DNA of 64,000 bases from Spirochaetia bacterium (GTDB lineage: Bacteria; Spirochaetota; Spirochaetia; SP-2023). Every line of letters starts with the position of its first letter. The first letter of the stretch is position 1. The DNA lies in the NCBI GenBank assembly GCA_965263295.1, contig OZ253665.1, positions 384,001-448,000 on the forward strand. Reading direction: 5' to 3'. The notes under the pieces are model-generated. The model searched no databases. It worked only from the letters and a program-made list of their open reading frames with translations, and was not told the DNA's origin. A program made the position numbers and the translations under genes. This document shows positions 16,011 through 17,704 of the stretch, in pieces.

Positions 16011-16213
16011 TAAAATGGATACCCGATACGGAGTGCGAGAAGTCCACAGAAGAATCGAAATTTTTCAGGTGAAGTCCGCTGAACAGCTGCTTTCGTTGTC
16101 TGGGCAAATGGCCTGCAGCAGGCACACCTTCCTCGCTTTGTCGTTTTCCCCTGATATCCCATTCCCCCAGATTGGGAGACGACATGAATATTGTCAGTAG
16201 AATGTCAACGCTA

Positions 16214-16246
16214 TTGCAAATGAAAATAGTTATGATTATAATATCA
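16214..16246 (+). promoter_or_regulatory. Overlapping Fur boxes and sigma70 promoter of enterobacterial fepA-fes type
   Basis: 16216-16234 and 16222-16240 each match GATAATGATAATCATTATC at 13/19; TTGCAA-17-TATAAT. Confidence 0.8.
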
Positions 16247-16298
16247 ACAAAATTATTTTTCCCGATGGCAATCATAGTAATATAGGGTCAATGGCGGA

Positions 16299-17489
16299 AT
16301 GCGCATAACCGGAAGTGAAGAGTGGTGGCAGGGCATCACCGGACCGCAATCCGAGGCCGTTGATGGCCGATGCCGGATCACTTTCCGGTGGCGAGATCCG
16401 GCAGGCGGCGAAACCTCATCAATGACTCAGCGAGTGTGGATTTACATCACCGGCGTTACCGACCACCATCAAAATGCCGTGCCTCAAACCATGCAGCGCG
16501 TAACGGGTACCGATGCCTGGTACTGGCAAACCACGTTATCCTCCAACTGGCGCGGTAGTTACTGCTTTATTCCCTCCGAACGCGATGACGATTTTTCTCC
16601 CGATCTATTTGCAGGCGATGTCCCGGATCGTACGTTGCTCCGTGAAGGCTGGCGCAAGTTGCTGCCGCGGGCGATTGCCGATCCACTGAATCCGCAAAGC
16701 TGGCAAGGGGCGCGCGGCCATGCGGTCTCTGCGCTGGAGTTGCCGCATGCACCGGAGCAACCCGGTTGGCAGTTTAACGACGAGCCCCGGCCGGCGCCAA
16801 TCTGCCTTGAGTGGCAGAGCCAACGTCTTGGCAATATACGCAGGATCTGGATTTATGTGACCGGCGAAACCGCACCCGCCGCCCGCCGGTTGGCGGCGCT
16901 GCTCGACGGCCAGTTCTGGGTCGAAATTATGCCGGTCTGGCCGGCGCTGGCCGGGCTAACCCGCGAAGAAAAACTTCCTCCGGCGGTTTACCTGCTGATC
17001 GATGTCATCAATAAGCAACACCGTAGCGTTGAGTTGCCCTGCAATCGCGACTTCTGGCTGGCATTACAAGAGGAGTTGCTGCCGCAGGTCTACCGCATAG
17101 CGCCTTTCAGCGACCGTGCCGATCGTACCGTGGTAGCTGGACAGAGCTTTGGCGGCCTGGCAGCGATGTTTGCTGCACTTTACTGGCCGGAGCGCTTTGG
17201 TTGCGTGCTGAGCCAATCCGGTTCCTATTGGTGGCCCCATCGCGGCGGCGCGCAAGATGGAATGTTGATTGAGCGACTCAACAGCGGCGAACTGCATTCC
17301 CGTGGCTTGCGAATCTGGCTGGAAGCCGGTGAGCGTGAACCGATTATTTTTCGCGCCAATCAGGTGCTTTTAGTCCAGCTACAGCAAATGCAGCATACGG
17401 TCTTCTGGCATCCGGTTGACGGCGGTCATGATGCGCTTTGCTGGCGCGGTGGACTGACGGCCGGACTTATTCAGCTATGGCAGTCTTAA
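16299..17489 (+). CDS. fes: Enterochelin (ferric enterobactin) esterase, enterobacterial type
   Basis: GSEEWWQ N-terminus; WRGSYCFIP, DPLNP, LLDGQFW, GQSFGG, SQSGSYWWP and GGHDALCWRGGL motifs. Confidence 0.96.
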   Translation: MRITGSEEWWQGITGPQSEAVDGRCRITFRWRDPAGGETSSMTQRVWIYITGVTDHHQNAVPQTMQRVTGTDAWYWQTTLSSNWRGSYCFIPSERDDDFSPDLFAGDVPDRTLLREGWRKLLPRAIADPLNPQSWQGARGHAVSALELPHAPEQPGWQFNDEPRPAPICLEWQSQRLGNIRRIWIYVTGETAPAARRLAALLDGQFWVEIMPVWPALAGLTREEKLPPAVYLLIDVINKQHRSVELPCNRDFWLALQEELLPQVYRIAPFSDRADRTVVAGQSFGGLAAMFAALYWPERFGCVLSQSGSYWWPHRGGAQDGMLIERLNSGELHSRGLRIWLEAGEREPIIFRANQVLLVQLQQMQHTVFWHPVDGGHDALCWRGGLTAGLIQLWQS

Positions 17490-17644
17490 TTACTTATTCA
17501 GGCAATACGCCCTTTAGGTTCACAAACCATTCTGGAAGCATCAGGCAGCGGGGCACGAATTCCGTCAACTTGCTGAGCGGAAGAATGCACACCGCCACGA
17601 TACAGCCAACCTGAAGAATGACAAGTATTATACAGGAATTTACA

Positions 17645-17704
17645 ATGCAATTCAGTAACCCCTTTGACAATCCGCAAGGGGTGGGGGATGCCTGCTTTTA
17701 CTAA
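17645..17704 (+). pseudogene. ybdZ: 5' stub of an MbtH-like gene; homology ends at about 17680
   Basis: MQFSNPFDNPQG matches the YbdZ N-terminus, then unrelated VGDACFY*; CAGGA RBS; sits right after fes as in ent clusters. Confidence 0.85.

Follow-up and report, generated by a model that had tools for sequence, protein, structure and literature searches.

An enterobacterial fes cassette in a Candidatus Haliotispira-like spirochaete, probably captured without a mobile element

The closest described counterpart of the locus considered here is the fepA–fes–ybdZ–entF locus of Klebsiella and Raoultella. The likeness covers the domain layout of Fes, its catalytic triad, the upstream Fur operator, fragments of the gene order and 80% protein identity; a footprinted Fur site in the fepA–fes region of E. 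coli is described in PMC2189734. However, the spirochaete has fes alone: fepA, the body of ybdZ, entF and the other ent and fep genes are missing, the promoter core is remodelled, Fes departs from its relatives in six conserved columns, and two of the four alleles are broken. Another relevant group is enterobactin piracy, represented in PMC8001512 by PfeA/PfeE of Pseudomonas and by the fepA–fepBDGC–fes sets of non-producing enterics, where an esterase likewise releases iron from a siderophore not produced by the cell itself. Unlike these systems, the spirochaete has no TonB-dependent receptor, TonB or FepB-like protein that we could find, and its Fes is predicted to be cytoplasmic, not periplasmic as PfeE. 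Finally, failed horizontal transfer is described as a source of bacterial pseudogenes in PMC6211624. The cases presented there share with ours a foreign gene, relaxed selection and independent lesions, whereas the spirochaete case is caught midway, as intact and broken alleles coexist, and its two edges and its internal clock can still be read. In the open-access literature we found no report of an enteric fes in a spirochaete.

The window, that is, the whole stretch of 64,000 nucleotides that was analysed, comes from a genome (G000) assembled as a single contig of 2.41 Mb, with 49% GC and 92.6% completeness by markers. The host is assigned to the Candidatus Haliotispira-like spirochaetes, Ca. 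Haliotispira prima being the top named match of the phosphoribosyltransferase (PRT) encoded to the right of the enteric block; this genus is placed in the Spirochaetota. The features of the locus are listed in Table 1.

Table 1. Features of the fes locus and its flanks (window coordinates)
Feature	Position	Strand	Basis and remarks
DegP/HtrA protease gene, host, left flank	14132..15751	+	NCBIfam TIGR02037; 66–68% identical orthologue adjoins the PRT gene in 3/3 congeners
Remnant of a host multicopy family, eroded, 25 codons	16015..16089	+	70–75% identity to paralogues
8-mer just outside the left edge; recurs at 15998–16005 and, inverted, at 17689–17696 outside the right edge	16117..16124	+	Post hoc
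fepA 5' leader, with which the enteric fragment begins on the left	16127..16201	-	Alignment and significance test
Fur operator and fes promoter (predicted)	16208..16251	+	blastn, promoter scan, alignment of enteric loci
fes, enterochelin esterase, 396 aa, triad S283/E347/H377	16299..17489	+	NCBIfam, Pfam, structure homologues
fes–ybdZ spacer, long Raoultella type, weakly alignable, ends in the ybdZ ribosome-binding site	17490..17644	+	Alignment
ybdZ (MbtH-like) stub, 12 codons, with which the enteric fragment ends on the right	17645..17680	+	blastn; annotation of the K. pneumoniae match
Non-enteric spacer, AT-rich (34% GC), containing TGATTATAAT twice in tandem at 17747–17768	17681..17891		Without match in congeners
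Phosphoribosyltransferase (PRT) gene, host, right flank	17892..18533	+	74–76% identical in 3/3 congeners; Ca. Haliotispira prima 74%

While the matches to degP and PRT are 48–150 bp apart in all three congeners, the distance in the window genome is 2143 bp, and none of the three has a DNA match to the 2140-bp interval. The insertion site is empty in each of them, and no syntenic, equally diverged fes is seen in these relatives, in agreement with the recent foreign origin suggested by the original prediction. The N-terminal domain of Fes (PF11806) was found in one of the 401 Spirochaetota genomes searched, the window genome, and in none of the 400 others.

The eroded remnant to the left of the block belongs to a host family with five full copies and one partial copy elsewhere in the genome. 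Compared with the closest copy, it has 4, 9 and 6 differences at codon positions 1, 2 and 3, respectively, consistent with neutral decay. The family is DUF3782/DUF8196-like, with nuclease-type clusters according to Atlas, which is a lead only; its proteins combine a coiled coil at the N-terminus with a nuclease-like motif at the C-terminus, and have no Pfam match. The copies are located at C1:133147–133740, 683005–683631, 732125–732847, 898428–899054, 1453634–1454200 and 422291–422494 of G000. The partial copy is within the window at about 38291–38494, adjoined by a GC-rich MFS transporter gene (36552–37913) whose plasmid matches reach only about 30%. The spacer to the right of the block probably serves as promoter region for the host gene that follows. 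The 10-mer repeated in it has nine copies genome-wide, three of them here, the third being at 16233–16242 in the remodelled fes promoter. Rfam yielded nothing at the gathering score in the window, and one chance match in the enteric block.

Enteric homology spans 16127–17680, about 1.55 kb. The main blastn block is matched at 74–78% by all eleven Klebsiella/Raoultella loci; it extends from 16208 to about 17487 in ten of them and starts from 16311 in the eleventh (L004), which has a separate piece at 16208–16251. A second piece, consisting of the ybdZ ribosome-binding site and 12 codons, ends exactly at 17680 in 11 of 11 loci, and the encoded peptide is identical in 11 of 12 enteric loci; the frame continues for seven codons into non-enteric DNA, where a stop follows. 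On the left, the fepA leader is cut about 7 nt before the start codon, as seen in the alignment with locus L006. The score of this alignment is 66, compared to 52.5 for the best of 500 shuffles and 53.5 for the best of 1000 random host stretches. All these controls are exceeded for four of the five loci tested, and for the remaining one (L002) the score is equalled by six of 1000 controls. About 75 bp present in all seven aligned enteric loci are absent between 16201 and 16208, this part being that much shorter than in Raoultella. The alignment of the fes–ybdZ spacer is marginal: its best score, for L011, is reached by one of 1000 host controls, and the scores for three other loci by 9–146 of 1000.

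Thus the block formed by a Fur box, fes and a truncated ybdZ, described in the original prediction as lying in a non-enteric genome, is real and lies in a spirochaete. Its fes is indeed complete, ybdZ does end after 12 codons at about 17680, and AT-rich non-enteric DNA follows. The left edge had been placed loosely between about 16010 and 16200; it is inside this range and is now fixed at about 16127 by the fepA leader. The absence of fepA and entF also holds: no ent or fep gene besides fes exceeds about 40% identity anywhere in the genome (entA–F and entS have only generic matches at 40% or lower), and of fepA only the leader remains. The suggested tetranucleotide profile did not set the block apart: its score, at the 50th percentile among 3105 windows, is host-like, and composition is uninformative as a sign of foreignness.

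The fes product is identified by sequence as the enterochelin esterase and is predicted to hydrolyse ferric enterobactin. It scores 607.2 bits with the NCBIfam equivalog PRK10439 (cut-off 222), contains the Enterochelin_N (PF11806, 126 bits) and Esterase (PF00756, 73 bits) domains, that is, the N-terminal lid and the alpha/beta-hydrolase, and its residues 3–395 are matched by the solved Fes chains 3MGA and 2B20. The catalytic triad S281/E345/H375 of Shigella Fes, described in PMC10515146, maps to the triad of Table 1 with the constant offset of +2; the alleles of X4 and of P0122/X5, considered below, have lost it. Among 189 columns conserved in at least 95% of 119 homologues, the window protein departs in six (the median is zero, and two homologues have seven and nine), five of the departures being common to the P0001 allele. 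R197, V208 and I210 are found in none of the 119 homologues. A single-sequence AlphaFold model has pLDDT 36 and is unusable, but solved homologues exist.

The fes promoter is predicted to consist of the -35 box TTGCAA (16214–16219), a 17-nt spacer and the -10 box TATAAT (16237–16242). We compared 40 enteric loci, all of them kin and one a duplicate, of which 37 have the anchor motif. Relative to these loci, the core is remodelled by about three substitutions and one deletion in 10 bp, and the perfect -10 box arose at a place where 36 of the 37 share an invariant core. The Fur-consensus score has remained unchanged by the remodelling at 13/18, a value reached by 177 sites in the host genome; the 18-position consensus used for scoring is the one we take to be standard. 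The candidate Fur box is supported by its homology to the enteric operator, not by its score. Hence the Fur-boxed promoter originally proposed stands as a homologue of that operator, but its score is not distinctive and its core is altered. The scan produced five promoter-like sites compared to 2.4 ± 1.6 expected by chance, and terminators at the chance level.

No open reading frame in 15752–17891 encodes a transposase, and neither a long terminal repeat nor an adjacent target duplication was found around the block, as had been noted from the start; the sole inverted match outside the edges is the 8-mer of Table 1. All three copies lie no more than 10 bp from one of the boundaries. Two random 20-mers share an 8-bp match in 0.5% of cases, and none of 20000 windows contains three copies; the motif was picked post hoc. 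As a Chi- or KOPS-like signal the 8-mer was rejected, since it is neither enriched (98 observed, 108 expected) nor strand-polarised. The simplest reading would be illegitimate recombination of free DNA. The cut in mid-gene had been thought to favour either non-mobile capture or an artefact; the former is retained, and the latter is contradicted by bridging contigs.

The explanation that we consider most probable is a non-mobile capture from an unsampled bacterium of the Klebsiella/Raoultella clade, now under relaxed selection. A 1.55-kb piece of the donor chromosome would have entered the degP–PRT intergenic site without a mobile element, at a target that already contained the eroded host repeat gene. 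Since both cuts are just outside the fes transcription unit, a complete cassette of promoter, Fur operator and fes would have arrived. The distance to Raoultella would stem mostly from evolution under purifying selection in the donor lineage. Once captured, fes may have been transcribed from the sigma70 promoter that came with it, controlled by the host Fur, and the enzyme would act in the cytoplasm, hydrolysing either ferric enterobactin or the linear products of its breakdown. As no import of the FepA/TonB/FepB type was found, there would be little substrate, and therefore selection would be relaxed and the alleles would decay independently.

Six runs from three studies contain the stretch or part of it, and four of them (X1, X3, X4, X5) were compared. 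Four fes alleles are known. The window allele and that of P0001 encode full-length Fes with the triad motifs. In X4, by contrast, codon 76 is a stop codon and the reading frame shifts at codon 112, and X5 has lost 10 bp between short direct repeats, its protein (read by hand) ending at residue 216, before S283. Fes of P0122 ends at the same residue, and since P0122 and X5 also share two changes in degP2, they are counted as one allele. The two inactivations among the four alleles are independent. The flanking genes of X4 have no disabling lesion in 4137 bp (p = 0.05 compared to the lesions in fes). The two intact alleles differ at 8 of 396 residues, compared to 5 of 1085 in the flanking proteins (p = 0.008). 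The counts of nonsynonymous and synonymous differences between the window and X4, 5:4 in fes and 4:10 in the host genes, do not differ significantly (p = 0.38). In the strain of the 88k contig, fes differs at 4 of 215 residues and its neighbours at 35 of 1085 in one count, and at 2 of 215 and 36 of 1085 in another (p = 0.07); in X5, the respective values are 5 of 374 nt and 9 of 252 nt (p = 0.10). This lower divergence of fes would fit either purifying selection at an earlier time or a spread of the insert from strain to strain. Neither the McDonald–Kreitman-like counts (p = 0.38 and p = 0.10) nor the comparison of polymorphic and fixed differences at conserved columns (p = 0.097) reaches significance. 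In our opinion, fes is probably under relaxed selection at present, and the transfer is fading out.

The alternative that survives best is adaptive acquisition: fes is, or was lately, a selected piracy gene, acting together with acquired inner-membrane importers and a TonB-independent outer-membrane route; the insert would have spread between strains by recombination, and the broken alleles would be niche-specific losses. This would agree with the gain of a perfect -10 box at a retained Fur-likeness of 13/18, with the loss of about 75 bp of the fepA-side leader, with two of four alleles being full length with the triad motifs, and with the divergence of fes in the distant strain being lower than that of the adjoining genes, but not with two independent inactivations or the excess of amino-acid changes between the intact alleles.

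The iron-uptake genes of the host bear on the same alternative. A single Fur-family gene is present, scoring under the equivalog cut-offs, along with two iron-chelate ABC sets, one of them Rhizobium-like. The latter is an iron-siderophore ABC operon at C1:1500805–1504850 of G000 (L046:3806–7849). Its binding protein is 60–67% identical to those of Rhizobium and Phyllobacterium and has no close match in the congeners (best 26–33%), and the operon is likely to be an older transfer from the Alphaproteobacteria. It is directly preceded by a Fur-like box, the single 16/19 box that the first scan gave (15/18 by the 18-position score). The feoA–feoB genes, with a small downstream ORF, are situated at C1:340916–343498 (L077) beside flagellar rod genes; a 14/18 Fur-like box is about 230 bp upstream of feoA, and among the four genomes of the genus a true FeoB match is seen in G000 only. 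Thus the Fur-family gene, the boxed Rhizobium-like operon with its binding protein and FeoB are points in favour of adaptive acquisition. However, with FepB the binding protein reaches no more than 21 bits (cut-off 205), and those Rhizobium relatives for which a substrate is named are annotated as ferrichrome-type. FepB itself has no tblastn match in the genome, and the matches of FepC, FepD and FepG are at 28–38%. The TonB-dependent receptor (PF00593) and TonB (PF03544) have no matches in the host genome and are present in two of the three congeners; since the genome is 92.6% complete, the TonB system is considered not found rather than proven absent. A tandem pair of fused ABC transporters, starting at C1:1970378 (L079:2379–5001), has a 15/18 Fur-like box at its start; its NCBIfam matches are generic, MsbA-like and below the cut-off, and presumably the pair resembles siderophore importers of the YbtPQ/IrtAB type. 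One congener (G003) has 15 matches of the iron-chelate binding-protein family, many of them in tandem (e.g. C5:1771732–1779583), compared to one or two in the other three genomes.

Ferric enterobactin is imported via TonB-dependent receptors in E. coli and Pseudomonas, and the known pirates described in the same source (PMC8001512) use such a receptor too, which speaks against adaptive acquisition. On the other hand, Corynebacterium glutamicum exploits enterobactin by a processing route given as unknown in PMC13634200, so receptor-free use is conceivable. All in all, we regard adaptive acquisition as unlikely. Still more doubtful is a TonB-independent xenosiderophore pathway composed of the enteric Fes, the Rhizobium-like ABC importer and FeoAB, with the fes promoter retuned to a consensus -10 box under the host's own Fur and the cassette spread among diverged strains by recombination, now leaving intact and lost alleles. 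The predicted protein belongs to Fes; the genome as sequenced does not encode a recognisable enterobactin uptake system. The proposed search for fur and siderophore uptake genes thus gave a mixed outcome, the Fur-family gene and two ABC sets being present and TonB, its receptor and FepB not, and release of iron from pirated enterobactin, suggested initially, finds no support as a present function, given two broken alleles of four and the TonB system and receptor not found.

The best relatives of the spirochaete fes are those of Raoultella, with 80% identity at the protein level and 77–78% at the DNA level. No donor above 80% protein identity was seen among 5.8 billion protein clusters, of which the 8000 best candidates were scored. 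E. coli genomes gave 67% at best, plasmids up to 75%, and phages two tiny unannotated records at 70–74%; the GTDB pattern scan, 401 donor-family genomes and metagenome contigs each yielded nothing above 80% protein or 78% DNA identity. Hence the blastn search proposed originally, together with the alignment of the fepA leader, has provided the edges but no close donor. In a tree of 13 rows, the window sequence is placed among Raoultella and Klebsiella, the order there not being resolved, and has a long end branch. The pairwise dS to the 11 loci is about 1 (0.90–1.25) and dN/dS is 0.12–0.155, as among enterics (0.05–0.18); the triplet-based values for the window branch are 0.57–0.77 for dS and 0.10–0.15 for dN/dS.

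The same data could be described by an old transfer, with the whole long branch (dS about 0.7) built up in the spirochaete under purifying selection and decay starting only late. The lack of a close donor is consistent with that, and so are the GC3 of fes, 0.63, between those of enterics (0.65–0.79) and the host median (0.56), and the host-like tetranucleotide score. However, the useless ybdZ stub is uneroded: it has no changes at 24 of 24 first and second codon positions relative to 11 of 12 loci, the probability of which under neutral evolution along the whole branch is 2e-5 to 2e-7, and neutral change after the capture is bounded at less than about 0.12 per site (95% bound). Therefore most of the divergence should predate the transfer and date from the time when ybdZ was still a gene in the unsampled donor, assuming that the stub is not under selection. 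The drift from GC to AT (26:10) is not stronger than that in K. indica (33:3), also contrary to an old transfer, and amelioration, which could not be told apart from that of enteric lineages, was rejected as a dating tool; the empty site in all three congeners points the same way. We consider an old transfer improbable. Under non-mobile capture, most of the divergence from Raoultella seems to have accrued in the donor lineage, and the transfer would be young relative to the donor divergence, yet older than the strain split. This split gives the lower bound on age, the flanking proteins differing by 0.5% in the 258k-contig strain and by 3.2% in the 88k-contig strain. A very recent transfer, as first suggested, agrees with the uneroded stub, but not with the lack of a donor above 80% protein identity and the presence of the insert in at least four strain alleles.

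Single contigs bridge both junctions in three of the four runs compared. In X1, one identical contig spans the stretch; it may be the source of the window itself. In X3, from another study, both junctions are bridged by identical sequence at the depth of about 4, which could be carry-over. In X4, from another sample, one contig spans the stretch with 25 different letters spread over the host genes and fes. X5 is represented by short low-depth pieces and bridges neither junction. The Fes protein cluster has three members, on contigs of 2407850, 258607 and 87925 bp, and so have the PRT, degP2 and aldolase clusters; from the shared contig sizes we infer that fes and the host genes are co-located in two further assemblies. 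An assembly chimera or contaminant splice, raised in the original prediction and compatible with X1 being the source of the window and X3 a carry-over, is hardly tenable, because strain-level variation flanks both sides of both junctions: the X4 contig has its own differences inside and outside the block, the two other assemblies carry distinct alleles, and no matching contaminant was found in the protein collection, donor-family genomes or metagenome contigs. Hence the cross-phylum capture of a self-contained fes cassette is almost certainly real. Separately, X4 has a 12-bp in-frame insertion of a repeat unit at window position 14276, in the N-terminal region of degP1.

Among the searched genomes of the phylum, no other has a Fes, and the gene indicates an unsampled donor lineage similar to Raoultella and Klebsiella. 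Were the intact allele active and useful, use of enterobactin without a TonB-dependent receptor would be implied. As a decaying transfer, it would be a tidy example of a known process: with edges at base level, the ybdZ stub as a clock, and live and dead alleles side by side, this cross-phylum transfer makes the fate of a non-mobile capture directly visible.
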